Source: Rhizobium sp. Q54 (lineage in GTDB: Bacteria > Pseudomonadota > Alphaproteobacteria > UBA2966 > CAIVPW01). Taken from it: DNA of 64,000 nucleotides. The stretch covers positions 7,728 through 71,727 of the forward strand of contig CAMDCA010000005.1 in NCBI GenBank assembly GCA_945889645.1, in the 5' to 3' direction. This document shows positions 3,911 through 63,096 of this stretch, one piece after another (position 1 is the first letter of the stretch; the number at the start of each line of letters is the position of its first letter). The notes under the pieces were generated by a model. That model had not been told where the DNA came from. It saw nothing but the letters and a program-made list of their open reading frames with translations, and did no database searches. The position numbers and the translations under genes are program-made.

Positions 3911-5503
3911 CTAGTGGCGGAAGTGCCGGATGCCGGAGAACACCATGGCGAGGCCGCGCTCGTCGGCGGCCCGGATGACTTCGTCGTCGCGCATGGAGCC
4001 GCCCGGCTGCATGATCGCCGTCGCGCCCGCCTCAGCGGCGGCAATCAGTCCGTCGGCGAACGGGAAGAATGCATCGCTGGCGACCACCGAGCCGATCGTA
4101 TCGGATTTCGCCACGCCGGCCGCCTTCGCAGCATCATCGGCCTTGGCGCGGGCGATGCGCACGGAGTCGAGGCGGCTCATCTGTCCGGCGCCGATAGCGG
4201 TGGTGGCGCCGTTCTTGGCGAACACGATTGCGTTCGACTTGACGTGCTTGCACACGCGCATGCCGAACAGAAGATCGCGCAATTCGGCGTCGGTCGGCGC
4301 ACGCTTCGTCACGACCTTGAGCGCCGCGGCCTCAACCATCGCGGCGTCGCGTGTCTGCACCAGCAGTCCCCCCGCAAGGGAGCGCACCGTCAGCCCGAGC
4401 GTGCGCGCATCGGGCATGTGGCCGATGAGCAGCAGGCGGAGATTCTTCTTGCTCGCAAACGTCGCGAGGGCCGCCGCGTCGGCGTCGGGCGCGATCACCA
4501 CCTCGGTGAATATCTTGACGATCTCGGCTGCGGCGGCGCCGTCGAGCGGACGATTGGCGGCGACAATGCCGCCGAACGCGCTGACCGGGTCGCAGGCCAG
4601 CGCACGGCGATAGGCGTCCGTGAGGGTATCGCCGATGGCGACGCCGCACGGATTGGCGTGCTTGATGATCGCCACCGCCGGGCCGTCGAACTCGGCCGCC
4701 AGCTCGATGGCCGCGTCGGCGTCGCCGAGATTGTTGTAGGACAACTCCTTGCCCTGCACCTGGCGGGCGCTGGCGACGCCGGGGCGCGGATCGGCGCTGC
4801 GATACAGCGCGCCGATCTGGTGCGGGTTCTCGCCATAGCGCAACGACAGTGTGCGCTGGCCAACCATGACGATGCGCTCGGGCAGAGAATCGCCAGGGGT
4901 GCCGGGCGCCTGCTGCTGGGCGAACCAAGCGGCGATCGCGGCGTCGTAGGCCGCCGTGCGGGCGAACGCCTTGGCGGCCAGCCGGCGGCGCAGGTCGGGC
5001 GAAGTGGCGCCGGCGTTGGCGTCCATCTCGCGTGCGACCTCGGCCAAGTCCGCGGCATCGACAACGACCGTGACGTAGGCGTGATTCTTCGCGGACGAAC
5101 GAATCATCGCCGGGCCGCCGATGTCGATCTGCTCGATGCATTCGGCGAAGGGAGCGCCCGCTGCGACGGTCTGCTCGAACGGATAGAGGTTCACCACCAC
5201 CAGATCGATTGGCGCGATCCCGTGCTTCTGCATGGCGTGCACATGCTCGGGCTCATCGCGCAGGCCAAGGATGCCGCCGTGCACCTTCGGATGCAGCGTC
5301 TTCACGCGCCCGCCGAGCATTTCCGGGAAGCCGGTGAAGTCCGACACCTCGCGCACCGGGAGACCCGCGGCCGCGATCGCCTTGGCCGTCCCGCCGGTGG
5401 AGAGGACTTCGACCTTGTGCTTGGCAAGAACGCGCGCAAATTCGACCAGCCCGGTCTTGTCGGAAACCGAAACCAGCGCACGGCGGATGGGATGATTGTT
5501 CAT
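3911..5503 (-). CDS. purH: Bifunctional AICAR formyltransferase / IMP cyclohydrolase
   Basis: Start [18 protein letters not shown]; MGS-like and AICARFT domains conserved throughout. The longer 5611 start is rejected because it would overlap the riboswitch. Confidence 0.9.
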
Positions 5504-5519
5504 GACGGCCTTGTGGGAC

Positions 5520-5640
5520 AGCTTCCGGCGGAGAAGCGTTAGATCGGGATCGAAATCCCGATGCCCAGGCGAACGGCCGACACTGCCCGTGCTTCCCGAT
5601 GGTGTGTCCATCCGATGTCGCCAGTCACGCGAACACCGGC
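5520..5640 (-). promoter_or_regulatory. ZTP (pfl-motif) riboswitch in the purH 5' leader
   Basis: The reverse-strand RNA reads ...CGCGUGACUGGCGACAUCGGAUGGACACACCAUCGGGAAGCACGGG...GUCGGCCGUUCGCCUGGGCAUCGGGAUUUCGAUCCCGAU.... It carries the hallmark UGACUGGCG 5' element and the CCG..CGCCUGGGCA 3' pseudoknot element of ZTP riboswitches. A perfect 8-bp hairpin follows as a putative expression platform, about 40 nt upstream of the purH ATG. Confidence 0.6.
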
Positions 5641-6654: not shown

Positions 6655-7344
6655 CTATGGGATGAGCCGGTACCCCCCCGGCTCAGTCACGAGGATAACC
6701 GCAACCGACGGATCGCGCTCCATTTTTTGACGCAGCCGGTAGACATGGGTTTCCAGGGTGTGGGTCGTGACCCCAGAGTTGTAGCCCCACACCTCCGACA
6801 GCAGCGTGTCCCGGTTCACCACTCGGGCGCCGGCCCGGTACAGGTACTTCAGGATCGCCGTCTCTTTCTCGGTCAGGCGCACTTTGCCGCCTGTTTCCGC
6901 GTCAATCAGCAGCTTGGCGGCCGGTCGGAACGAGTACCGACCGATCGCAAATATCGCATCTTCGCTCTGTTCGTGCTGGCGCATGTGCGCCCGCAGGCGT
7001 GCGACCAGTACGCCCAGACGAAATGGCTTGGTGATGTAGTCGTTGGCACCCGACTCGAGGCCGAGGATTGTGTCCGCATCGCCGTCCTGGGCCGTCAACA
7101 TGATGATCGGCGACTTGACGCCGGACCGCCGCAACAGCCGGCAGACCTCGCGGCCGTCGAGGTCCGGGAGGGCGACGTCCAGCAAGATCGCGTCGAAATG
7201 TCGCGTCTTGGCGAGTTCCAGGGCGCGCGCGCCGTTCTCCGCCTCGGTCGTCTCGAACTCCTCGTCCAAGTCGAGTTGCTCATGCAATGCGTCGCGCAAG
7301 GCATTGTCGTCGTCCACGAGCAAGACCGTCTTGGCGGTAGCCAT
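6655..7344 (-). CDS. OmpR-family response regulator (receiver plus winged-helix domain); possibly a CenR-like orphan regulator
   Basis: Receiver motifs LLVDDD, the phospho-acceptor Asp context LLDVALPDLDG and the K in GANDYITKPF. C-terminal trans_reg_C domain (YLYRAGARVVNRDTLLSEVWGY...THVYRLRQKM). No cognate kinase is adjacent. Confidence 0.8.
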   Translation of the reverse strand: MATAKTVLLVDDDNALRDALHEQLDLDEEFETTEAENGARALELAKTRHFDAILLDVALPDLDGREVCRLLRRSGVKSPIIMLTAQDGDADTILGLESGANDYITKPFRLGVLVARLRAHMRQHEQSEDAIFAIGRYSFRPAAKLLIDAETGGKVRLTEKETAILKYLYRAGARVVNRDTLLSEVWGYNSGVTTHTLETHVYRLRQKMERDPSVAVILVTEPGGYRLIP

Positions 7345-7503
7345 CGAGGGGAGGGGTCCGGCAAAGGGTTTCTGAAAGGCGGGCGAAGCATGCACAAGTC
7401 CGCCACTGCACACAACAAAGCACCGCCGGTTTTGTCAGTCACAAACCCGCGTGCGGCGCGCCCGGCAGGAAGTTCCTAGCGGCGCCAGTCCGGCGCGAAC
7501 GCA

Positions 7504-11293: not shown

Positions 11294-11602
11294 CCCCGCG
11301 TCTCCTCAGAGTTGTCTGTTACGAACGGAATCCGCTTAGCAGCTATCCTCTCGGCGGAGAATCCGCGAAAGAACTGCAAAATTTCTGACACCCCGGCCGC
11401 CGATGGTCAAGGTTTTGGCGGCAACGGCTGTGTCGAATTTTCCCCAGTGTGACTTGCGAGGCACATGGTTAAGACGAAGGTATGGGGCGGGATTCCGACC
11501 GCACTGGCGCGGGAACGCGCATTTGCGGTTTGGCGCCATGGGGCCGCCCGTCTATACTTCGACCCCACGTTTTTCTTTGCCCGTACCGGCGTTTTTCTTG
11601 CC

Positions 11603-12184
11603 ATGACCCAAGTATTTCAGTCGCGGCCCAGCACAACCTCGTCCAGCCGTTCGGCCCTTTGTGCCCCGAGGGAAGGGCGTTTGGAGGGACGGCGCGGGTT
11701 TCTTGTCGTCGCGACTCTGGCTCTGGCCTTGGCCGGATGCGGGGCGATCGAGCCGGCGCCGCCCGAGCCGGCGCAGCAGACACAAGGCATGTTCGGTCCG
11801 AACGGCATTCCTTTGTTCTCTACTGGGCAGCAGACGGGCCAGCGCACCGGCGGCGAGATCGGCGTCAACGCGTTCCTGTGGCGCGCGACGCTCGACACCA
11901 TCGCCTTCATGCCGCTGGCGTCCGCCGATCCGTTTGGCGGCGTCATCATCACCGACTGGTACGCGCCGCCCACCACCACGGGCGCCGAGCGCTTCAAGCT
12001 CAACGTCCTGATCAAGGACCAGCGGCTGCGCTCGGACGGCGTAAAAGTGACCGTTTTCCGCCAGGAACGAGCTGGCGCCGAGTGGCGCGATGCAGGCACC
12101 AATGCGGCCACCGGCACCGAACTCGAGAACGCCATTCTGACGCGTGCGCGGCAGATGTGGCTGGACGCCGCCGCGGCTCCCTAG
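11603..12184 (+). CDS. DUF3576 domain lipoprotein
   Basis: Lipobox LALALAGCG. Conserved DUF3576 core NAFLWRATLDTIAFMPLASADPFGGVIITDWY. Sits in the usual position upstream of leuS in alphaproteobacteria. Alternative TTG start near 11681; the 11465 ORF start is probably an artefact. Confidence 0.6.
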   Translation: MTQVFQSRPSTTSSSRSALCAPREGRLEGRRGFLVVATLALALAGCGAIEPAPPEPAQQTQGMFGPNGIPLFSTGQQTGQRTGGEIGVNAFLWRATLDTIAFMPLASADPFGGVIITDWYAPPTTTGAERFKLNVLIKDQRLRSDGVKVTVFRQERAGAEWRDAGTNAATGTELENAILTRARQMWLDAAAAP

Positions 12185-12199
12185 CCGCGGGAGCAAGCG

Positions 12200-15301: not shown

Positions 15302-16345
15302 ATGAAGGTCTCAAGCAGCGCCGCAGACGGGTTCGCGCGCCGGCCGGATCGTTCCTGTGTGCTGGTGTACGGGCCGGACCATGGCCTGGTGCGCGAGCGG
15401 GTGACGGCGCTGGCCCGGGCCGTGCTGGGGAAGGACTTCGGTGATCCGTTCCGCTCGGCCGACTTGCAGGGCACGGCCGTGGCGGCCGACTGCGCGCTTC
15501 TGGTCGACGAGGCAGCCGCGCTGGCGCTGACCGGCGGCCGTCGGGTCGTGCGGGTGAGCAATGCCACCGACGGTTCGGCGGAAGCGTTTGCGACGGTCTT
15601 AAAGGTGCGGGCCGGACGCCCCGCCGGTGAGGAGTCGTTGGTCATCGCTGAGGCCGGTGAGCTGGGGCCCCGGTCGGCACTGCGCCGATTGTTCGAGGAA
15701 TCGGCCGATGCCGCCTCGGTCGCTTGCTACGCCGTCGCCGATGAGGACTTGGTCGGCTTTGCTGAGGCAGCGTTGCGCAAAGCCGGCCATTCGATTGAGC
15801 CGGGGGCGCTGGACTTGTTCGGCAGCGCATCGATTAACGATCGGTCGGTTTTACGCTCCGAACTGGAGAAGGTGAGCTTGTTCGTTGGCCCCGGGGCGGT
15901 TGTGCGCGCCGAAGCGGTTGCCGCAAGTCTGGGCGATTCCCTGGAGAGCGACCTCGACGACGTCGCGCTGGCGGTCGCCACAGGAGATCTGGAACGGCTG
16001 GACGCTGCGATGGCGAAGGCGTTCTCCGCCGGCCAGGGCGGGATCACCGTATTACGAGCGGTCGGTCGGGAGTTAATCAAGCTGTACCCCGCGGTGGCCG
16101 CAGTCGGCGCCGGGGCGAGCGTGGAGGGTGCCGTGGGGCAAATCCGCCCGCTCGTGTTTTTCAAGCATAAGCCGCTGTATCTAAAGGCGACTCGCTCGTG
16201 GCGCACGGACGATGTCGCACGGGCGATCGAGATGATCGCCGAGGCGGAGTTGGTGTGCAAATCGGGCCTTGCGCCAGACGAGCCAATCGTGTGGCGCGCG
16301 TTGTCGCGCGTCGCCCACGCTGCCCGTCGATCGATTCCCGCCTAA
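15302..16345 (+). CDS. holA: DNA polymerase III delta subunit
   Basis: Start MKVSSS 4 nt after lptE. Delta-subunit N-terminal pattern (VLVYGPDHGLVRE). Conserved synteny. Confidence 0.75.
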   Translation: MKVSSSAADGFARRPDRSCVLVYGPDHGLVRERVTALARAVLGKDFGDPFRSADLQGTAVAADCALLVDEAAALALTGGRRVVRVSNATDGSAEAFATVLKVRAGRPAGEESLVIAEAGELGPRSALRRLFEESADAASVACYAVADEDLVGFAEAALRKAGHSIEPGALDLFGSASINDRSVLRSELEKVSLFVGPGAVVRAEAVAASLGDSLESDLDDVALAVATGDLERLDAAMAKAFSAGQGGITVLRAVGRELIKLYPAVAAVGAGASVEGAVGQIRPLVFFKHKPLYLKATRSWRTDDVARAIEMIAEAELVCKSGLAPDEPIVWRALSRVAHAARRSIPA

Positions 16346-17325
16346 AACCGATCGTTCGCTATCGCCGCGAGGGCGGCGGAGACATCTGTGTCGGACCACT
16401 CAGTCGCTTCGTCCGCGGGCCGCATGTCGCTCTCGCCGATCAGCACGCGGGCGAGCCGCTTACAGATTTCATCCAGTTGTTCGAGTGTCTTGTAGCTGAC
16501 GCGCACCTCGCCGCCTTCGTCGCCCTTATGGTGGATTGCGACCGGGAGACCCAGCGCCCGGGCGATATCGTGCTCCAGCGCGAGGGTATCGTTGTCCTTC
16601 TTTGCCGGAGCTTTACGAACAGATGTTCCGCCGGCTTCCGCAACAGCTTGCGCGAGCTTTTCGGTCTGACGAACGTTCAGTCCCTGACTGACCACGCGTT
16701 TGGCGAGGTCGATCGGATCTGACGCGGTCAACAGAGCGCGGGCATGTCCCGCCGACAGCTTGCCCTCGTCAACCATCGCCTTCACGTCATCTGGCAACCC
16801 CAGCAGCCGCAACATATTTGCCAGGTGGCTGCGGCTCTTGCCAAGCGCCTTGGCCAGATGTTCTTGAGTATGCCCGAACTCGTCCATCAGCCGTCGATAG
16901 CCTTCGGCCTCCTCCAGCGCCGTCAGGTTCTGTCGTTGCAGGTTCTCGACCAGCGCCACTTCCAGGGCGTCTGAATCGGAGAGTTCCTTGATGACAACCG
17001 GAACCTGGTGGAGCTGGGCCTGCTGCGCGGCCCGCCACCGGCGTTCGCCCGCGACGATCTCGTACGCTTCGTCGGCGCCCTCGCCGATCCGCCGAACTAG
17101 GATCGGCTGTAGAACGCCGCGTTCCCGGACCGAGGAGACAAGCTCGGCGATTTCGTCGGCGTCGAAACGACGCCGCGGCTGATACTTGCCCGGACGCAAC
17201 CGATCGATCGGAACCTCGCGTTGCGAGCGAACCTTATCGAGGGACGCGTAATCCTTTGCGTCGTCCCCAAGCAGGGACGATAAGCCACGACCCAAACCGT
17301 GACGCTTGCCGCTCTCTTCCGTCAT
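16342..17325 (-). CDS. parB: Chromosome partitioning protein ParB
   Basis: GLGRGLSSL box; ParB/Spo0J HTH and N-terminal domains. Its stop overlaps the holA stop (CTAA on opposite strands). Confidence 0.9.
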   Translation of the reverse strand: MTEESGKRHGLGRGLSSLLGDDAKDYASLDKVRSQREVPIDRLRPGKYQPRRRFDADEIAELVSSVRERGVLQPILVRRIGEGADEAYEIVAGERRWRAAQQAQLHQVPVVIKELSDSDALEVALVENLQRQNLTALEEAEGYRRLMDEFGHTQEHLAKALGKSRSHLANMLRLLGLPDDVKAMVDEGKLSAGHARALLTASDPIDLAKRVVSQGLNVRQTEKLAQAVAEAGGTSVRKAPAKKDNDTLALEHDIARALGLPVAIHHKGDEGGEVRVSYKTLEQLDEICKRLARVLIGESDMRPADEATEWSDTDVSAALAAIANDRF

Positions 17326-17388
17326 GACGCCCTCCTGCATTTGGTTGCCCAAGCCAAACGACGCAGAGCGTCGCTGACTTACCAACTA

Positions 17389-18228
17389 CTAGGCGGCCTG
17401 TAACGACCGTTCGCGCTTGAGGATCTCTCGCGCAAGGTCAATGTAGGCTTGACTACCGGAACACGTATGGTCGTACAGAAGGGCCGGCTTCCCGAAAGAC
17501 GGCGCCTCCGAAATACGAACGTTCCGCGGAATCACCGTGCTATAGACTTTGTCGCCCAAGTGTCCTCGGACGTCGTCCGCAACCTGGCCCGACAGATTGT
17601 TTCGCTTGTCGAACATCGTCAGCACAATCCCTTGAATCTCCAGTTTCGGATTCAAAGAGTTCTTGACACGATCAATCGTACGTAACAGGTGGCTCAGCCC
17701 CTCCAGCGCATAGAACTCGCACTGCAACGGAACGAGGAGCGCATCCGCCGCCACCATCCCATTTAGGGTCAACAGCCCAAGCGAAGGAGGGCAGTCGATC
17801 AAAATGTGATCGTACTGGTTGACGACCGGCGCGAGCGCCTCGCGCAGGCGAAAGGCCCGGCGGTCCATCGCCACTAGGTCGAGCTCCGCGCCAGACAGAT
17901 CGACGGTGGCTGGGACCACCCGCAGTCCCGGGATTTCCGTCTCGACGGTTGCCTGCTCGACGGTAACGGAGCCAAGGATCACTTGGTAGGTGCTGGCATC
18001 TCTCTGGCCGGCCCGGATGCCGAGACCGGTACTGGCGTTGCCCTGTGGGTCTAGGTCCACGAGCAAGACCTTCTGGCCCACGGCCACCAAGGCGGTCGCG
18101 ACGTTGATGGCGGTGGTCGTCTTTCCGACTCCGCCCTTCTGATTGGCAACACAAACGACCCGGGCAGGCCGCGCCGGCTCGAGGTTCTCAGGGTCCGGAC
18201 GTATCGGTTGCTGTTCCACGTGAAACAC
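17389..18228 (-). CDS. parA: Chromosome partitioning ATPase ParA/Soj
   Basis: Deviant Walker A KGGVGKTT. The annotated GTG start lies inside a parS palindrome, so the true start may be further downstream. Confidence 0.9.
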   Translation of the reverse strand: MFHVEQQPIRPDPENLEPARPARVVCVANQKGGVGKTTTAINVATALVAVGQKVLLVDLDPQGNASTGLGIRAGQRDASTYQVILGSVTVEQATVETEIPGLRVVPATVDLSGAELDLVAMDRRAFRLREALAPVVNQYDHILIDCPPSLGLLTLNGMVAADALLVPLQCEFYALEGLSHLLRTIDRVKNSLNPKLEIQGIVLTMFDKRNNLSGQVADDVRGHLGDKVYSTVIPRNVRISEAPSFGKPALLYDHTCSGSQAYIDLAREILKRERSLQAA

Positions 18229-18853
18229 CTTGGATCCGCAGGATCGCGGACGCGGGGTCCGTCCTGCTCGGCAGCACTTCGGAGGTCATTCTCCGCTCCT
18301 TGCCCAACGCGGTCAATCCCATCTGCGCGGATTGGCCGACGGGAAGCAGGTAGGTCGTCTCCGAATCCACCAAGTGCCCGGTCTGCCGCAGCACCTCGTC
18401 CGGCCGAGTCCAAGCTCGAGCGGTGAGGACATCGACAGACCCCCCGAGCGTTTCACGTGAAACATCCTGCACCCGTTTCGGATGAACCGTCACGCCGCCT
18501 AGACCAAGCACCCGAGCTGCCTCGTTCAAGAACGCGCCCTTTCGGACGTCGGATTCGATGAGGTGAACCCGAGGCGCACCCATGGCCGCGAGGATCAGAC
18601 CTGGAAACCCGGCACCGGAACCGACATCCACCCAAACCTTCGCGCCGATGGGTGCGAGCGGAAATAGCTGGGCGCTATCCAGGAAGTGGCGGCGCCAAAG
18701 ATTCCGAAGGGTGTTTGGACCAACAAGATTGATCGCGGCCTGCCACTTCCGCAGCAGCGCTTCGTAAGCCCTCAGACGCTCGACGACATCGGGACCAGCG
18801 CCCGTCGCCCCCGCAAATTCCACAGGAGTAAGGGGCCGAAGTTCGCCGCCCAT
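18188..18853 (-). CDS. rsmG: 16S rRNA (guanine527-N7)-methyltransferase
   Basis: SAM-binding motif VDVGSGAGFPG; GidB family; conserved position between mnmG and parA. Confidence 0.85.
   Translation of the reverse strand: MGGELRPLTPVEFAGATGAGPDVVERLRAYEALLRKWQAAINLVGPNTLRNLWRRHFLDSAQLFPLAPIGAKVWVDVGSGAGFPGLILAAMGAPRVHLIESDVRKGAFLNEAARVLGLGGVTVHPKRVQDVSRETLGGSVDVLTARAWTRPDEVLRQTGHLVDSETTYLLPVGQSAQMGLTALGKERRMTSEVLPSRTDPASAILRIQGVSRGTATDTSGP
18212..18227. promoter_or_regulatory. parS: parS site 1 (TGTTCCACGTGAAACA, 15/16 match to consensus)
   Basis: Matches TGTTTCACGTGAAACA with one mismatch. Overlaps the annotated parA start and the rsmG 3' end. Confidence 0.6.
18449..18464. promoter_or_regulatory. 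parS: parS site 2 (cGTTTCACGTGAAACA, 15/16 match to consensus)
   Basis: Palindromic near-consensus parS inside the rsmG coding region, about 235 bp from site 1. Confidence 0.6.
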
Positions 18854-29354: not shown

Positions 29355-30383
29355 TCATGCTGCCGCTCCTCCGCGTGCACAGACCGCCGACGGGCAGCGG
29401 TGGCCCGCATGGCGGGGGCAGGCGCCCAGGGTGCCGGCCAAGGCGGCCCGAACCAGGCCCGCCAGCCCGTTGATGAATTGGGGGTTGGTCGCCACCGTCG
29501 GGGCCCGCACGTAGGCGGGTACGCCGGCATGGGCCGCCGCCTCGCGCAGTTCGATGTCGAGCTCCACTAGGGTCTCCGAGTGCTCCGACACAAACGAAAT
29601 CGGTGCCACCACGACAGGCACCCGATCGGCACCGGCCTTGGCGATCTCCGCGTCGATCGACGGGCCGATCCACGCCAGGCGGCCGACCCGGCTCTGGTAG
29701 CACAGGCGCCAAGACCCAGGCGCCAGGCCAAGCTCGGCGGCAATCGCCGCCGCAGTTGCGGCGGCATGGCCAGGGTAGGGATCGCCGGAATCCGCAATGC
29801 GCAGCGGCAGGCCGTGGGCTGAGAACAGCACGCGCGGGCTACCGTACCGGTTCGCTTCGTCCAGCGCCGGCCGGATGCAGTCGGCATAGGCGCGCAGGAA
29901 CCACGGCTGGGTGCCGTAGCAGCCGACGGTGGTGACGCTGCTGCCCGTCAGCTGCTGCCATTCGGCCACGGAGGACGCGGTCGTGGTCGTCGAGTACTGC
30001 GGATACAGCGGCACCAGGACCGTACGGTCGGGTGCGAAGGCCCGCACCGCGGCTACAGTTTCGGCCGCGCGCGGGTGCCAATAGCGCATGGCGGCGAACG
30101 TGCGTACGTCGCCGGCATCGGACAGCGCCGTCGCCAGCGCGCGGGCCTGGGCGTCTGTCTGTTCGCGAATGGGGGATCGTCCGCCGATCTGGGCGTAGAT
30201 CGCACGCGCGATGGGGGCTCGCCGGCGCGCGATCCATTCGGCCAGCAAAACCCGCACCGGCGTCGGCACCCGCAGAATCGCGGGGTCGCGGAACAGGTTG
30301 CGCAGGAACGGCAGCACCGCCTCGGGGCGATCGGGACCGCCGAGGTTGAACAGCACCACGGCGATGCGGCTATGGGCGCTCAT
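29355..30383 (-). CDS. hemH: Ferrochelatase with a Cys-rich C-terminal extension
   Basis: Start MSAHSRIAVVLFNLGGPD overlaps the hemE stop (ATGA). The C-terminal tail ...GACPRHAGHRCPSAVCARGG carries 3 Cys. Confidence 0.85.
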   Translation of the reverse strand: MSAHSRIAVVLFNLGGPDRPEAVLPFLRNLFRDPAILRVPTPVRVLLAEWIARRRAPIARAIYAQIGGRSPIREQTDAQARALATALSDAGDVRTFAAMRYWHPRAAETVAAVRAFAPDRTVLVPLYPQYSTTTTASSVAEWQQLTGSSVTTVGCYGTQPWFLRAYADCIRPALDEANRYGSPRVLFSAHGLPLRIADSGDPYPGHAAATAAAIAAELGLAPGSWRLCYQSRVGRLAWIGPSIDAEIAKAGADRVPVVVAPISFVSEHSETLVELDIELREAAAHAGVPAYVRAPTVATNPQFINGLAGLVRAALAGTLGACPRHAGHRCPSAVCARGGAAA

Positions 30384-31414
30384 CGGGCTCGGGTCCGCAC
30401 GCGCTGCACCAGTTGGGCGACATGATCCGGCGGGGTGTCCTGCCGAATGCCATGGCCAAGGTTGAACACATGGGGTGCGCCCCGCATGGTTCCCAGGATG
30501 CGATCGACTTCTTCGTCCAAGGGCGGGCCGCCTTCGGCCAGCAGAATTGGATCCAGGTTGCCCTGCAGCGCCGTCTGCGCCGGTACTTGGCGGCGCACCC
30601 AGGCCAGCGGCGTGCCCTGGTCGATGCCGATCGCGCTGACGCCCGTCTCGGTGGCGAACCGGCGCAGCTGTGCGCCGCCGCCGCGCGGAAAGCCGATGAT
30701 CGGCAAGCCAGGCACCGCGGCACGAACCCGTCGCACGATTTCGGCCACCGGTTCGATGCACAAACGGTGGAACAACCCCTCGGGTGCTGCTCCGGCCCAG
30801 CTATCGAATAGCTGAACGACTTCGGCCCCGGCGCGTGCCTGCGCGATCAAGTGACGCGCGGTCACGTCTACGAGCAGGCCCATCAGTTCGCCAAAGGTCT
30901 GCGGGTCACGCCACGCCCAGCGAATCAGGTTGGCATGATCCGTCCCGCCCTTGCCTTCGACCATATAGGCCGCAACGGTCCACGGTGCCCCGGCAAATCC
31001 GATCAAGGTGCAGGTCTTGGGCAACGCTGCGGCTAGCCCTCGCACCGCGTCGTAGACCGGCGCCAAACGATCTTCCAAGCCCTCTGGACGCAGCGCTGCA
31101 ATGTCTTCGCGCGAGCGGACCGTACTCAGCACAGGGCCTTCGCCCTCGCGATACTCGAGCTGCATGCCCAAGGCATGCGGAATGACCAGGATGTCGGAAA
31201 ACAGGATCGCTGCATCGAAGCCAAACCGGCGGATCGGTTGCAACGACACTTCTACTGCAAGGTCCGGCGCATAGCACAGGTCTAGGAAACTACCTGCCTG
31301 CGTGCGTACCGCTTTGTACTCGGCCAGATAGCGGCCTGCCTGACGCATCAACCAGATCGGTGGCGTTGCCAGCGCCTCGCCTGCCAGTACGCCTAGCAGG
31401 GCCTTGCGTGTCAT
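30380..31414 (-). CDS. hemE: Uroporphyrinogen decarboxylase
   Basis: Start MTRKALLGVLAGE; PIWLMRQAGRYL signature. Confidence 0.9.
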   Translation of the reverse strand: MTRKALLGVLAGEALATPPIWLMRQAGRYLAEYKAVRTQAGSFLDLCYAPDLAVEVSLQPIRRFGFDAAILFSDILVIPHALGMQLEYREGEGPVLSTVRSREDIAALRPEGLEDRLAPVYDAVRGLAAALPKTCTLIGFAGAPWTVAAYMVEGKGGTDHANLIRWAWRDPQTFGELMGLLVDVTARHLIAQARAGAEVVQLFDSWAGAAPEGLFHRLCIEPVAEIVRRVRAAVPGLPIIGFPRGGGAQLRRFATETGVSAIGIDQGTPLAWVRRQVPAQTALQGNLDPILLAEGGPPLDEEVDRILGTMRGAPHVFNLGHGIRQDTPPDHVAQLVQRVRTRAR

Positions 31415-31737
31415 CGGGCGAGTCTCGGAATGTCCGGCACCCTCTAAGATCATAGATGGGTAAGGAATGATGGTAGTGGTGATTGGAACATAGATATGCG
31501 GGAGTTCTTGTGCTCAGGAAGAGTGTGCACAGACGAGGTCGCGCAGGGACCGGTCCGCCGCCGTCGTTTTGTCACCTTTTGGCAAACTTGTCCCCGTTTC
31601 GCCTTGCACGTGGATGAAACGATCCAGCTGTCCGCAAGCATGGGGATGAGTTGGTGGCAAAGTGCGTCCATGACCACGCATGAGGGCGGAATGGTACTTA
31701 TCCCGTGCTGGCTTGGGACAACTTTGGCCGGGACGCG
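31415..31737. other. oriC: Candidate chromosomal replication origin (oriC) in the hemE/maf intergenic region
   Basis: 323-bp non-coding gap, locally about 50% AT in a 67% GC genome. Flanked by hemE on one side and maf-aroE-coaE-dnaQ-secB on the other, which is the conserved alphaproteobacterial Cori context. Degenerate DnaA-box-like 9-mers are present (GTGGATGAA, TTATCCCGT, TGACCACGC). parAB and the parS sites lie about 13 kb away. Genes on either side are predominantly oriented away from this point. Confidence 0.5.
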
Positions 31738-32322
31738 ATGAACACGTTGATTCTGGCCAGTGGCAGCCCGACGCGAGCGAAGATGCTGACCGCGGCCGGC
31801 GTGACATTCAGCACGATTGTGCCGCAGGTCGATGAGCTGATGTTGCGCGCGCAGGCCAAGGATGGAGCGGCAGCCGCGCGTGCGATCGCCGAACAGAAGG
31901 CGCTGGCCGTTTCGAAAACGCATTTAGATGCCTGGGTCATTGGCGCCGACCAAGTTCTCGAAGTCGGCACAACGCTGCTTGGTAAGCCGGGTACATGGGC
32001 CGAGGCACGATCCCAGCTGACGCTGCTGCGCGGCCGCACGCATCGCCTGGTGACTGCTGTGGCGGTGGCGCATGCGGGCGCGATCACATGGCATCACATG
32101 GAATCCCCCAGCCTGACGGCCCGAACGTTCACCGATGAGGCGCTAGACGACTACGTTGGTCGCGCCGGCGACGCAGTTCTTGGCAGTCCCGGCGCCTATC
32201 ACTTCGAAGGCCTTGGGGCCTCCCTGTTCGACGAGGTCCAAGGAGACTATTTCTCGATCCTCGGACTTCCGCTGCTTCCGTTGCTGGCATATCTCCGCAC
32301 TCAGGCCGTGATCTCCGCATGA
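31738..32322 (+). CDS. maf: Maf-like nucleoside triphosphate pyrophosphatase
   Basis: LILASGSPTR N-terminal motif. Confidence 0.85.
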   Translation: MNTLILASGSPTRAKMLTAAGVTFSTIVPQVDELMLRAQAKDGAAAARAIAEQKALAVSKTHLDAWVIGADQVLEVGTTLLGKPGTWAEARSQLTLLRGRTHRLVTAVAVAHAGAITWHHMESPSLTARTFTDEALDDYVGRAGDAVLGSPGAYHFEGLGASLFDEVQGDYFSILGLPLLPLLAYLRTQAVISA

Positions 32323-36417: not shown

Positions 36418-36601
36418 AAGGGGGCGCGCAGCGTTCTTCCGTCACGTCCTAACAGGCTGTTGAAAAAGTCAGCGGCGGAATGTTTGCGCGCAACAATAGA
36501 ATCAGGACGGCCCCAGTCTTGAATCGATCTTGCGTGAATGGTGCATCTCGCGAATCAAAGTTGCGCACGACCATGGTCCAAAAACCTAGTTCAACAGCCT
36601 G

Positions 36602-37924
36602 CTAAAGGACGAACCGGCTGAGATCGGCGTTTTTCGCCAGTGCGCCGACCTGGGCGCGCACGTACGCCGCGTCGATGGTTGCGGTCTCGCCCGCACGGTC
36701 GCTGGCCGTGAAGCTGATCTCGTCCAGCAGCCGCTCCAGCACCGTGTGCAGCCGCCGCGCGCCGATGTTCTCGACGCCCGCGTTCACCTCGGCGGCCAAA
36801 GTAGCGATCTCGTCGATGGCGTCGTCGGTGAACTTCAGCGTCACCTGCTCGGTCGCCAGCAGCGCGATGTACTGCCGGATCAGACTGTTCTCCGGCTCGG
36901 TCAGGATGCGGCGGAAATCCTCGCGCGTCAGCGCCTGCAGCTCGACGCGGATCGGCAAGCGGCCCTGCAACTCCGGCAATAGGTCGCTCGGCTTCGACAA
37001 GTGGAACGCGCCCGAGGCGATGAACAAGATGTGGTCGGTCTTCACCGGCCCGTACTTGGTCGCCACCGTCGTGCCTTCGATCAGCGGCAGCAGGTCGCGC
37101 TGCACGCCTTCGCGCGACACACCTGCGCCGGAATATCCATGCTCGGAATCGCGCCCGACGATCTTGTCGATCTCGTCGATGAACACGATGCCGTTCTCCT
37201 GCACCGCGTCGATGGCGGCGCGGGTCGTCTTCTCCTGATCGACCAGCTTGTCGCCTTCCTCGGTCACCACCGCGCGCCACGCTTCGTCCACCGTGGTGCG
37301 GTGCTTGCGCGTGCGCTTGCCGAACGCTTTGCCCAGGATGTCGTTCAGGTTGATCATGCCGACCTGGCCGCCCGGCATGCCGGGAATGTCCATCGTCGGC
37401 ATGCCTGCGCCGCCACCGGTGTCGGTCATGTCGATCTCGATCGGCTTGTCGGCCAGCTCGCCCTCGCGCAGGCGCTTGCGGAACGTCTGTCGCGTGCCCT
37501 CGGCCGCGTGTTGTCCGATCAGCGCGTCGAGGATGCGATCTTCGGCGGCTGCTTCGGCGCGCGCCGAGACCGCCGCGCGGCCCCTGTCGCGCTCCATGCC
37601 GATTGCCGTTTCGACCAGGTCGCGGATGATCTGCTCGACGTCGCGGCCGACGTAGCCGATCTCGGTGAACTTGGTCGCCTCGACCTTGATGAACGGTGCG
37701 TTGGCCAATCGCGCGAGACGGCGCGAGATCTCCGTCTTGCCGACGCCGGTCGGGCCGATCATCAGGATGTTTTTGGGGAGCACCTCGTCGCGCAGGTCAG
37801 CCGGCACGCGCTGGCGGCGCCAGCGGTTGCGCAGGGCAATCGCCACCGCGCGCTTGGCATCGCGCTGGCCGACGATGTAACGATCAAGCTCGGAGACGAT
37901 TTCGCGCGGAGAAAAGTCCGCCAT
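36602..37924 (-). CDS. hslU: ATP-dependent protease ATPase subunit HslU
   Basis: Walker [11 protein letters not shown]; full-length ClpY. Confidence 0.95.
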
Positions 37925-60970: not shown

Positions 60971-62344
60971 TCAGACCGCGCCGGGCAGAACGATGCGCGT
61001 GGTCAACCCGCCGCCGTCGCGGTCCTCGAACGTGATGTCGCCGCCGTGCCCGCGCGCCACTGAGCGCGCCACGGCGAGGCCCAGGCCCATGCCGCCGGTC
61101 TCGCGGCTGCGCGAACTTTCGATGCGATAGAACGGGGCGAACACGCGTTCGCGCAGTTCAGCCGGAATGCCGGGGCCGCGATCTTGAATCAGCACCAGGT
61201 GACCGTCGCCTTCGGGCGTCAGCGTCACCAGTGCCTCGCTACCGTAGCGCACCGAATTGTCGATCAGGTTGGCGAATGCGCGCCGCAGAGCCACCGGGCG
61301 GCCGTGCAGCACGGCGCGATCCGGGCCCTGGTAGCGCACGTTCTGTCCGGCATCGGCGTGATCGGCGCACAGACTCTGCAGCAGCGCGGCCAAGTCGAGA
61401 CGCGCGCGCGGCTCCTGCACGGCCTCGTCGCGCGCGAACGCCAAAGTCGACTCCAGCATCTGCTGCATTTCGTCCAGGTCGTTGACGGCCTTGGCGCGCT
61501 GCTCGTTGTCGTCGATGAACTCGGCGCGCAGCTTGAGACGGGTCAGCGCCGTGCGCAGGTCGTGCGAAATAGCCGCCATCATCATGGTGCGATCGTCGAC
61601 GTAACGGCGCAGGCGCTCCTGCATGCGATTAAAGGCGCGAATGGCCCGCCGGACCTCCGGGGAGCCATTCTCCGGCAGTGGCGGCGCATTGACGTCGGTG
61701 CCGAAGCGATCGGCCGCAAGCGCGAACTGGCCGACTGGCGCCGCAGTTCGGCGTACCAGCAGGAACGCGACCGACAGCACCAGGAACGCCAGCGCGCCCC
61801 ACAGCCAGCCGCGCACCCACGGATCGCCCTCGGCGGGCTCCGGCCGCGCGTCGAACAACAGCCAGCCGCCGGTGACGGCGACCGCGACCAAGATGCCATC
61901 GCCGTCCGGTCCGCGCGTCGGCCAGATGCGGAACGGCCGATCGGCGAGGGGCGCCAGGCGCGGAACGACCTCCGCCGTCAGTCCTTCCGGCGGCGGCGGT
62001 TGCAGCGGCGGCGGCTGCGGTCGCAGGCTGACGGTAAAGTAGCGCGTGCTGACAAGGCGCGGAACGTCGCGCCGGCGCGGAACAGGCGCCGACTCGTACG
62101 TCTCAACGACGCTGATGACGCGCTGCGAAATCGTTTCGGCCTGCAGGGCGATCCGGCCGAGCGTCCGGTCGTAAATGTAGGTGACGAGCGGAATCGAACC
62201 GAACACGGCCAGTCCGACCAGCACGATGAGCATGACGCGGCCGGCGAGGCTTTGCACCCACTCGCGCCAGCCGCCCGCGTCACGCGACGGCGCCGCCGGA
62301 GCGACCGGCTCGTGCCGCGCCGGCAACTGCGGCAGGTCGGTCAC
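60971..62344 (-). CDS. Sensor histidine kinase (two TM helices, HAMP, HisKA, HATPase_c)
   Basis: H-box AAISHDLRTAL, N-box LIDNSVRYG, and G-boxes DRGPGI / GGMGLGLAV. Confidence 0.85.
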   Translation of the reverse strand: MTDLPQLPARHEPVAPAAPSRDAGGWREWVQSLAGRVMLIVLVGLAVFGSIPLVTYIYDRTLGRIALQAETISQRVISVVETYESAPVPRRRDVPRLVSTRYFTVSLRPQPPPLQPPPPEGLTAEVVPRLAPLADRPFRIWPTRGPDGDGILVAVAVTGGWLLFDARPEPAEGDPWVRGWLWGALAFLVLSVAFLLVRRTAAPVGQFALAADRFGTDVNAPPLPENGSPEVRRAIRAFNRMQERLRRYVDDRTMMMAAISHDLRTALTRLKLRAEFIDDNEQRAKAVNDLDEMQQMLESTLAFARDEAVQEPRARLDLAALLQSLCADHADAGQNVRYQGPDRAVLHGRPVALRRAFANLIDNSVRYGSEALVTLTPEGDGHLVLIQDRGPGIPAELRERVFAPFYRIESSRSRETGGMGLGLAVARSVARGHGGDITFEDRDGGGLTTRIVLPGAV

Positions 62345-63096
62345 GGCCTAGAGACTTCGGAGGCGAACATGTAGCCGCCGCCGCGAACCGTCTTGATGCG
62401 CACCGGTTCGCGCGGATCGTCCTCGATCTTGCGGCGCAGGCGGCTGATCTGGACGTCGATGCTGCGGTCGAATGGAACGGTGTCGCGCCCGCGGGTCAGG
62501 TCCAGCAGCTGATCGCGCGTCAACACACGCTGGGCGCGTTCGACCAACGCGAGCAACAGGTCGTATTCGCCGGACGTCAGCGGGACGAGTTCGCCGTCCG
62601 GGCGGAACAGTTCGCGCCGGTCGGTGTCTAGCTTCCAGCCTTCGAACACCAGCACGCCCTTGCGGCCTTCGGCGCTTGGCGTCGACTCGGCGCGGCGCAT
62701 GACGGCGCGAATGCGCGCCAGCAACTCGCGCGGATTGAATGGTTTGGCGACGTAGTCGTCCGCACCCATCTCCAGGCCGATGATGCGATCGGTGTCCTCG
62801 CCGACCGCGGTCAGCATGATGACGGGCATCTGCGACGTCGACCGCACCCAGCGGCACAGCGCCAGGCCGTCCTCGCCCGGTAGCATGAGGTCGAGGACGA
62901 TGAGCTCGAAGCGTCCCGCCTCCATCGCCTTGCGCATTTCACGGCCGTCGGCCGCCGCCGTCGCCCGGAAGCCGTGCTTGCGCAGGAATCGGGACAGGAG
63001 GTCACGGATTTCGCGGTCGTCATCGACGATCAGGATGTGCGGGCTAGTTTCCACCGCCTGAAATATAGCGGGAGGCGCGGGTTTTTCGGCCCCCAA
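62341..63096 (-). CDS. OmpR-family response regulator, cognate to the adjacent kinase
   Basis: Receiver motifs ILIVDDD and LDLMLPGEDG plus a winged-helix output domain. Stop overlaps the kinase start. Confidence 0.85.
   Translation of the reverse strand: MGAEKPAPPAIFQAVETSPHILIVDDDREIRDLLSRFLRKHGFRATAAADGREMRKAMEAGRFELIVLDLMLPGEDGLALCRWVRSTSQMPVIMLTAVGEDTDRIIGLEMGADDYVAKPFNPRELLARIRAVMRRAESTPSAEGRKGVLVFEGWKLDTDRRELFRPDGELVPLTSGEYDLLLALVERAQRVLTRDQLLDLTRGRDTVPFDRSIDVQISRLRRKIEDDPREPVRIKTVRGGGYMFASEVSRP

Follow-up and report, generated by a model that had tools for sequence, protein, structure and literature searches.

A candidate chromosomal replication origin in the hemE-maf gap of an uncultured alphaproteobacterial lineage

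Results

The DNA stretch studied here, called the window throughout, comprises 64 kb (64,000 nucleotides) of contig CAMDCA010000005.1 of Rhizobium sp. Q54, derives from a metagenome assembly and has a G+C content of 67.2%. It holds, at 31415-31737, an intergenic region of 323 bp between the divergent genes hemE and maf, which had been predicted to be the chromosomal replication origin and which we regard as a candidate oriC. On its left side the start codon of hemE (uroporphyrinogen decarboxylase; 30380-31414, minus strand) ends at 31414, and on its right side the ATG of maf (31738-32322, plus strand) begins at 31738. The hemE product matches TIGR01464 with 379.7 bits (cut-off 302.95) and the maf product matches TIGR00172 with 124.8 bits (cut-off 117.15), and both genes read away from the gap. 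We set the maf ATG at 31738 because the TIGR00172 profile match begins at residue 13 of a longer open reading frame (ORF). In the public annotation of the source contig maf starts 45 nt too late and encodes 179 aa instead of 194 aa; this late start leaves out 31738-31782 (2633-2677 in locus L081) and with it the conserved N-terminus, and the gap then appears to be 368 bp long.

To the left of the gap hemE, hemH, hemJ and rho follow each other on the minus strand, and to the right maf, aroE, coaE and dnaQ on the plus strand, followed by secB (minus) and a Tim44-like gene (plus), all identified above curated NCBIfam cut-offs. These models agree with the gene order and the divergent orientation on which the original prediction was built. 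The location upstream of hemE, in the conserved hemE/(DUF299) maf-aroE-coaE-dnaQ cluster, is that of an origin of the type of Cori, the origin of Caulobacter crescentus, and 33 of the 52 genes in the window are co-oriented with forks leaving the gap. There is no homologue of DUF299 in the 64-kb window, as had been noted before.

The gap contains 43.5% AT compared with 32.8% for the window, and its tract 31444-31497 (54 bp, 63% AT) is the most AT-rich of the whole window at the scales of 40, 54 and 80 bp, an AT-rich region of the kind that a Cori-type origin has for unwinding. The gap had been described as the most AT-rich stretch overall, which is true at 40-80 bp and fails at the scale of 323 bp, where it ranks second with 45.2% AT against 46.1% for a stretch inside parA.

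Relatives of hemE with 97, 80, 76, 73, 73, 72, 71, 62 and 60% identity were obtained from a protein search, and the DNA of eight lineages was analysed; the 97%-identical relative was left out. Among species-representative genomes the nearest hemE, among the matches listed, was 56-58% identical and belonged to Rhodospirillales-like organisms, and a metagenome scan with Maf gave only relatives of at most 51% identity. In all eight retrieved lineages hemE and maf are adjacent and divergent, the gaps are 298-344 bp long and the flanking operons are those of the window. When the gaps were aligned together with that of the window (nine lineages; all column identities below refer to this alignment), the columns of the elements described in the following had a mean identity of 0.78, compared with 0.53 for the rest of the gap. 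The five top peaks of an unbiased sliding scan over 9 columns fell on the repeat block at 31473-31481 (0.93), box A at 31587-31595 (0.90), box D (0.86), box F (0.85) and box B (0.84). All five boxes, the degenerate sixth box and the tract resembling a DNA unwinding element are thus visible as phylogenetic footprints in the nine lineages, whose hemE identities are 60-81%.

More distant relatives were found in genome and metagenome collections, in which hemE and maf occur together in 95 loci. In every locus the genes are divergent, and between them lies either an ORF of the size of DUF299 (about 275 aa, in most loci) or nothing. The intervening ORF was confirmed as PF03618 (Kinase/pyrophosphorylase, DUF299 family) in one locus only (L001), and DUF299 is absent from the whole clade of the window as well as from seven other lineages (L002, L042, L054, L092, L094, L097 and L109). 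The gaps upstream of hemE are typically 320-520 bp long, with an AT content 8-15 points above that of their loci. Three loci (L079, L018 and L033) were left out, having hemE outside the origin context; the DNA upstream of hemE in these is a tRNA-like region, a hemC-like coding sequence or unrelated DNA, and hemE must therefore be displaced, or present in a second copy, in some alphaproteobacteria.

An analysis of k-mer enrichment in 83 gaps upstream of hemE from diverse alphaproteobacteria, compared with Markov shuffles, gave as top words ATCCACAGG (18 loci observed, 0.2 expected), TTATCCCCG (19 and 0.3) and TTATCCACA (15 and 0.2), the last being the Escherichia coli consensus of the DnaA box. 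Also enriched were TCATCCACA, TTATCCCCA, TTTTCCACA and GGGATAAGT, as well as the repeat word CTACTAC, which was present in 14 loci with 0.9 expected. About half of the distant loci share one arrangement on the hemE strand, namely (T)AATCCCCR, 12-15 nt, repeats of the type CAACTACTACCACTA, and then T-rich or AT-rich DNA. A second box, for example GATTCACAGG or TTATCCACAGG, is often present in the spacer of 12-15 nt, and between the end of the repeat block and the hemE start lie 55-90 nt. In 23 of the 32 distant loci that were scored, TAATCCCCR was found at -18 to -24 from the start of the repeats.

The original prediction called the DnaA boxes of the gap weak and proposed a density scan with TTATCCACA allowing up to 2 mismatches. 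Over the window such a scan gave 51 matches against 49 expected, with two in the gap and no enrichment, and measured against the Escherichia coli consensus the description is correct. The boxes were also measured with a model of the alphaproteobacterial family, a position matrix made from 288 sites in 79 distant gaps upstream of hemE, with the clade of the window excluded. The consensus of this matrix is TTATCC[A/C]C[A/G], with C (0.51) and A (0.49) at position 7; the weak boxes (W-boxes) of Cori are C-rich at this position. The gap has five sites of at least 7 bits where 0.25 are expected (Poisson P = 6.7e-6). Of the nine sites in the window that reach 10 bits it contains three, and in a sliding count over the 64 kb it is the sole maximum at every threshold. 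The cluster of DnaA boxes that belongs to a Cori-type origin is thus found with the family model.

The five sites are box A, TTGTCCCCG (31588-31596, plus strand; 10.3 bits, column identity 0.89), which reads TTGTCCCCG or TTATCCCCG in the relatives; box B, TCATCCACG (31609-31617, minus; 11.1 bits, 0.84); box C, TCATCCCCA (31641-31649, minus; 11.8 bits, 0.69); box D, TTATCCCGT (31698-31706, plus; 7.5 bits, 0.83), of which GGGAWAA on the hemE strand is invariant in the nine lineages; and box E, TTGTCCCAA (31713-31721, minus; 7.4 bits, 0.68), with TTTTCCCCA or TTATCCAAG in the relatives. Every one of them resembles an enriched family word from the distant gaps. On the hemE strand their order is E, D, C, B, A, where E, C and B face hemE, as does box F described below, and D and A point the opposite way. 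An inverted repeat of 12 nt (CAAACTTGTCCC and GGGACAACTTTG) has boxes A and E as its cores. Two other conserved elements lie among the boxes or close to them. One is a CACAG element, GGACAGCTG (31625-31633, minus), a peak of 0.77 in the sliding identity that reads CACAGG or CACAAG in the relatives; CACAGG is enriched in the family gaps, and the element may be what is left of a decayed box, namely its 3' half. The other is a conserved CTGTGCAC block (31525-31532, minus; column identity 0.76), which may be a promoter element or a protein site.

The part of the gap next to hemE has the arrangement seen in the distant loci. Read on the hemE strand it consists of GAACTCCCG, 12 nt, CCAATCACCACTACCATC and then ATTCCTTACCCATCTATGATCTTAG. 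The first of these (31499-31507, minus; column identity 0.83) is a degenerate DnaA box proximal to the repeats, here called box F, and the same position holds CAATCCCCG, CTATCCCCG, CCATCCACG or TAATCCCCR in relatives. The second (31469-31486, minus) is a G-free block with a period of three nucleotides and the most conserved part of the gap (0.86, with the peak of 0.93 given above); it is a local degenerate version of the CTACTACTAC repeats, similar to DnaA-trios, that other alphaproteobacteria have at this place. The third is the AT-rich tract (31444-31468, minus; column identity 0.69); 30 nt lie between its end and the hemE start codon, and it is the probable site of first strand opening. The direct repeat GATCATAGAT and GAACATAGAT, at 31448-31457 and 31486-31495, brackets the trinucleotide repeat block.

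To score this module we used a model with two ungapped position matrices, one for the box and one for the repeats with the AT tract, separated by a variable spacer and trained on 32 distant loci only. Its top match in the window is 31446-31507 on the minus strand with 21.0 bits, the next unrelated site has 0.6 bits, and none of 300 shuffled windows reached this score (mean -2.7, maximum 18.8). The repeat and AT part supplies 19.9 of the 21.0 bits, and 56 nt separate the end of the scored repeat core from the hemE ATG. The tract that the original prediction had pointed out as possibly unwinding is therefore conserved and part of a module of box, spacer, repeats and AT-rich DNA, and is more than AT-rich DNA; the internal architecture, which had been considered unclear, can now be drawn with boxes A-F, the repeat block and the AT tract.

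Sister lineages hold better versions of the proximal box (CAATCCCCG, CTATCCCCG, CCATCCACG) and repeats of the form CTACTACCACTACTACC, while AACTCCCG is common to the window, L163 and L174. Within the clade the proximal box shifts from CAATCCCCG, CTATCCCCG or CCATCCACG to AACTCCCG or AATTCCCG with a constant spacing to the repeats, as seen when L163, L166, L172 and L174 are compared with L169, L173, L175 and L176 (alignment A2, columns 285-297). This looks like a lineage-specific rewriting of one origin element.

The CtrA motif TTAA-N7-TTAA does not occur in the 64 kb even when one mismatch is allowed, which extends what had been reported before, and the response regulators at 6655-7413 and 62341-63096 score below the cut-off of the CtrA model. 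The IHF motif WATCAANNNNTTR with at most 1 mismatch has 6 matches in the window (6.6 expected), one of them at 31740-31752 on the minus strand, just inside maf. The gap has a single GANTC site, which is no enrichment. In the window as a whole GANTC is rarer than expected, with 172 sites against 253.5 +/- 16 and more sites in all shuffles, an under-representation that fits a CcrM-type methyltransferase in the organism.

A partition locus lies 13 kb from the gap, as had been noted. The parA-parB operon (16342-18228, minus strand) is accompanied by two parS sites, TGTTCCACGTGAAACA at 18212-18227 and CGTTTCACGTGAAACA at 18449-18464, each with one mismatch to TGTTTCACGTGAAACA; 0.1 such sites are expected by chance in the window, and they are 13.0-13.2 kb away from the gap. 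ParB was identified, and ParA matched only below cut-off, to models of partition ATPases of the ParA/MinD type. Palindromic parS sites adjoining parAB within tens of kb are what is found close to origins with a ParABS system. The most AT-rich 100 bp of the window (17592-17691, 56% AT) are located inside the parA coding sequence, with a GAATC and a GATTC site at 17634 and 17649.

Farther left the window holds leuS, holA, parB, parA, rsmG, mnmG and mnmE, and farther right hslUV, hisBHAF, dapB, dnaJK, grpE-hrcA and rph. No tRNA or rRNA gene occurs in it. Three places in this surrounding DNA deserve mention. Between smr and hslU, which are convergent, lies a gap (36418-36601) with about 50% AT over 200 bp, three GAATC sites within 58 bp (36499, 36521 and 36552) and two nested inverted repeats (36450-36464 with 36590-36604, and 36480-36494 with 36560-36574); a small RNA gene, a repeat element and a methylation-sensitive site are all conceivable here. 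A ZMP/ZTP riboswitch (RF01750, 52.5 bits, gathering score 39) at 5556-5638 on the minus strand overlaps the start of the purH ORF (3911-5611, minus). Since it covers the first purH codons, the true start of purH, a classic target of this riboswitch, is probably farther downstream. The apparent gap of 890 bp between a porin gene and leuS (11306-12199) holds an ORF of 239 aa (11465-12184, plus), and the true intergenic stretch, from 11306 to about 11460, has two GAATC sites and TTTTCCCCA at 11438.

Discussion

The hemE-maf gap is very probably the chromosomal replication origin, orthologous to the hemE-linked origins of Caulobacter, Hyphomonas, Brucella, Azospirillum and the Rickettsiales. The synteny, now confirmed with curated models, supports what had been predicted from the neighbourhood, and so do three independent comparative results, the k-mer words, the cluster of five sites and the module match, none of which was trained on this lineage. 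The elements are present in statistical excess, they are conserved, and they are positionally orthologous to a module found across the class. Origins adjoining hemE have been mapped or predicted in all five groups (PMC6393856, PMC6650430, PMC4104442, bioRxiv 10.64898/2026.09.14.751567, PMC1914354): the marker frequency of Hyphomonas peaks close to hemE, and its parAB is at a distance of about 7 kb (PMC6650430), the oriI of Brucella is close to hemE (PMC4104442), and in Azospirillum the oriC between yqfL and hemE has six boxes and parAB at 12.4 kb (bioRxiv 10.64898/2026.09.14.751567).

From the sequence we infer the binding of DnaA, the place of unwinding and the firing of the origin as follows. 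DnaA would fill the array of five moderate to weak boxes, whose form TTATCC[A/C]C[A/G] is typical of the class, and an oligomer would then grow from box F over the 12-nt spacer onto the strand-asymmetric repeat block at 31469-31486 and melt the adjoining AT-rich tract at 31444-31468. The helicase would be loaded at the melted tract, and two forks would set out from it in opposite directions, each running the way the operon on its side (hemE-rho or maf-dnaQ) is transcribed. The duplicated origin region could then be segregated by ParB on the parS sites 13 kb away. As there are no CtrA motifs, the sequence also speaks against a direct gating by CtrA like that of Cori.

Several results speak against an origin in the gap. 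Within the 64-kb window there is no dnaA gene, and the gap has no match to TTATCCACA with at most 1 mismatch. Box F differs from TTATCCACA at 6 positions and contributes 1.1 bits to the module score, and a gapped profile hidden Markov model of the module, made from the distant loci (MAFFT, hmmbuild, nhmmer), gave zero matches in the window at E <= 10. The published description of the basal unwinding system asks for a DnaA box with at most 2 mismatches, 0-16 bp from at least 3 consecutive NAN trios on the opposite strand (PMC8287927); the spacer of 12 nt is within this range, GAACTCCCG is too far from the consensus, and the repeats of the window lack three such trios in a row. These repeats read 3'-AGT GGT GAT GGT AGT-5', with the canonical 3'-GAT-5' in one unit of five and G instead of A as the middle base in the other four. 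The GC skew does not switch at the gap (-0.007 in the left arm, -0.017 in the right), each arm being only 32 kb long, and the skew at third positions is similar in co-oriented and head-on genes within the window (P = 0.75). The skew analyses, for which every split point was also scanned, are uninformative, because GC skew cannot decide for or against an origin over arms of 32 kb, and nothing was gained from them either way.

It is rather improbable, although this is the best of the alternatives, that the gap is a divergent promoter and regulatory region only, with the boxes serving as DnaA-dependent operators and the active origin located elsewhere, e.g. next to dnaA. Both the hemE and the maf operon need promoters within the 323 bp, the conserved AT-rich block lies 30-72 nt upstream of the hemE start, and the missing local skew switch and the missing dnaA would both fit. 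However, no sigma-70 consensus promoter or terminator was found in a scan of the gap, the promoter scan covering 31300-31850, and the conserved block consists of CTA/CCA repeats whose distance from a DnaA box is fixed at 12-15 nt, a signature of origin unwinding and not of a promoter. Five boxes in 134 bp are also far above what known autoregulatory operators need, and the orthologous gap is a mapped origin in Caulobacter, besides the marker-frequency peak of Hyphomonas (PMC6393856, PMC6650430). The two roles are in any case compatible, because the hemE promoter of Caulobacter sits inside Cori and is required for replication (PMC6393856).

A decaying or auxiliary origin, where the ancestral site is kept, the box and the repeats are eroded, and replication now starts elsewhere or with the help of an extra factor, would explain why box F is GAACTCCCG here and CAATCCCCG, CTATCCCCG or CCATCCACG in the sisters, and why the repeats are CCA/TCA and not CTA. 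We consider this very unlikely, as the altered forms are themselves conserved (AACTCCCG in the window, L163 and L174; the repeat block at 0.86-0.93), which implies purifying selection and not decay. The variants of box F and the repeats in the window look selected for the same reason, being shared with L163 and L174 and situated in the best-conserved columns. The least plausible explanation, which we reject, is that the conserved blocks are a structured RNA (a leader, riboswitch or small RNA, as Cori has a small RNA transcribed inside it; PMC6393856) or a small protein gene among the ORFs of 81-157 aa that overlap the gap, e.g. the one of 81 aa at 31496-31741: no Rfam model matches at its gathering score (the sole match at E <= 1 has 19.6 bits against a cut-off of 47.9), the folding energies are ordinary (z +0.3 to -1.1), the conservation is in short blocks between diverged sequence with no paired covarying arms, and indels between the blocks that are not multiples of three rule out the ORFs as genes.

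As an origin, the gap is only mildly unusual, in its conserved deviant repeat units, its proximal box and its lack of CtrA motifs, and the rest is expected biology at a textbook position. A more far-reaching idea, which we offer as a tentative and somewhat doubtful one, is that it represents a compact origin of at most 323 bp, without CtrA gating and without a high-affinity DnaA box, with conserved deviant repeats and a proximal box rewritten to AACTCCCG. If that is true and the origin fires efficiently, it would be a natural test case, with G in four of five units where the central A of the DnaA-trio is supposed to be essential, and the rules for DnaA-trios would be looser in Alphaproteobacteria or co-evolving with DnaA. 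The module of box, spacer, repeats and AT-rich DNA is a sharper origin criterion in this class than counts of TTATCCACA, and it predicts the unwinding site. The location of the origin also anchors the replicon map of an uncultured lineage and helps to orient contigs and to estimate growth rates from coverage (peak-to-trough ratios).

Compared with the basal unwinding system of Bacillus subtilis and others (PMC8287927), the gap has the same succession of a box in the orientation of TTATCCACA, a spacer, a trinucleotide block and AT-rich DNA, and the distant alphaproteobacterial relatives hold near-canonical CTACTACTAC repeats, i.e. 3'-GAT-5' trios on the other strand. The window differs in the 6 mismatches of its box and in the G in the middle of four of five units, and the published search would miss its module. 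In the Rickettsiales (Wolbachia, Ehrlichia, Rickettsia) DUF299 is replaced by COG1253 or a phage gene, and the gaps are about 380-620 bp long and AT-enriched with about 3 DnaA boxes (PMC1914354); the origin thus stays with hemE despite the change of the opposite boundary gene, whereas CtrA and IHF motifs are retained there and the AT content is much higher. The oriC of Azospirillum baldaniorum has yqfL/DUF299 as boundary gene and boxes closer to the consensus than ours, but it is also adjacent to hemE and has six boxes in mixed orientations (five to six here), two palindromic parS sites of 16 nt and parAB at about 12.4 kb, where parS is 13 kb away here.

The closest parallel is with Cori. Cori has five CtrA sites and five GANTC, compared with zero and one here, it is bounded by DUF299 instead of maf, it is about 80 bp longer, and it has an IHF site that is not demonstrable in our gap. 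The CtrA sites are a mark of the Caulobacter type of cell-cycle gating and not of origin function itself. Cori has 2 moderate G-boxes and 5 weak W-boxes instead of perfect ones (PMC6393856, PMC4468827), and comprises 404 bp with 43.56% AT in a genome of 32.80% AT (PMC1914354, Table 1). The hemE-maf gap is near-identical to it in size and composition (323 bp, 43.5% AT), and shares with it the position next to hemE, the same gene cluster, an array of moderate and weak boxes, an AT-rich region and a parABS system nearby.

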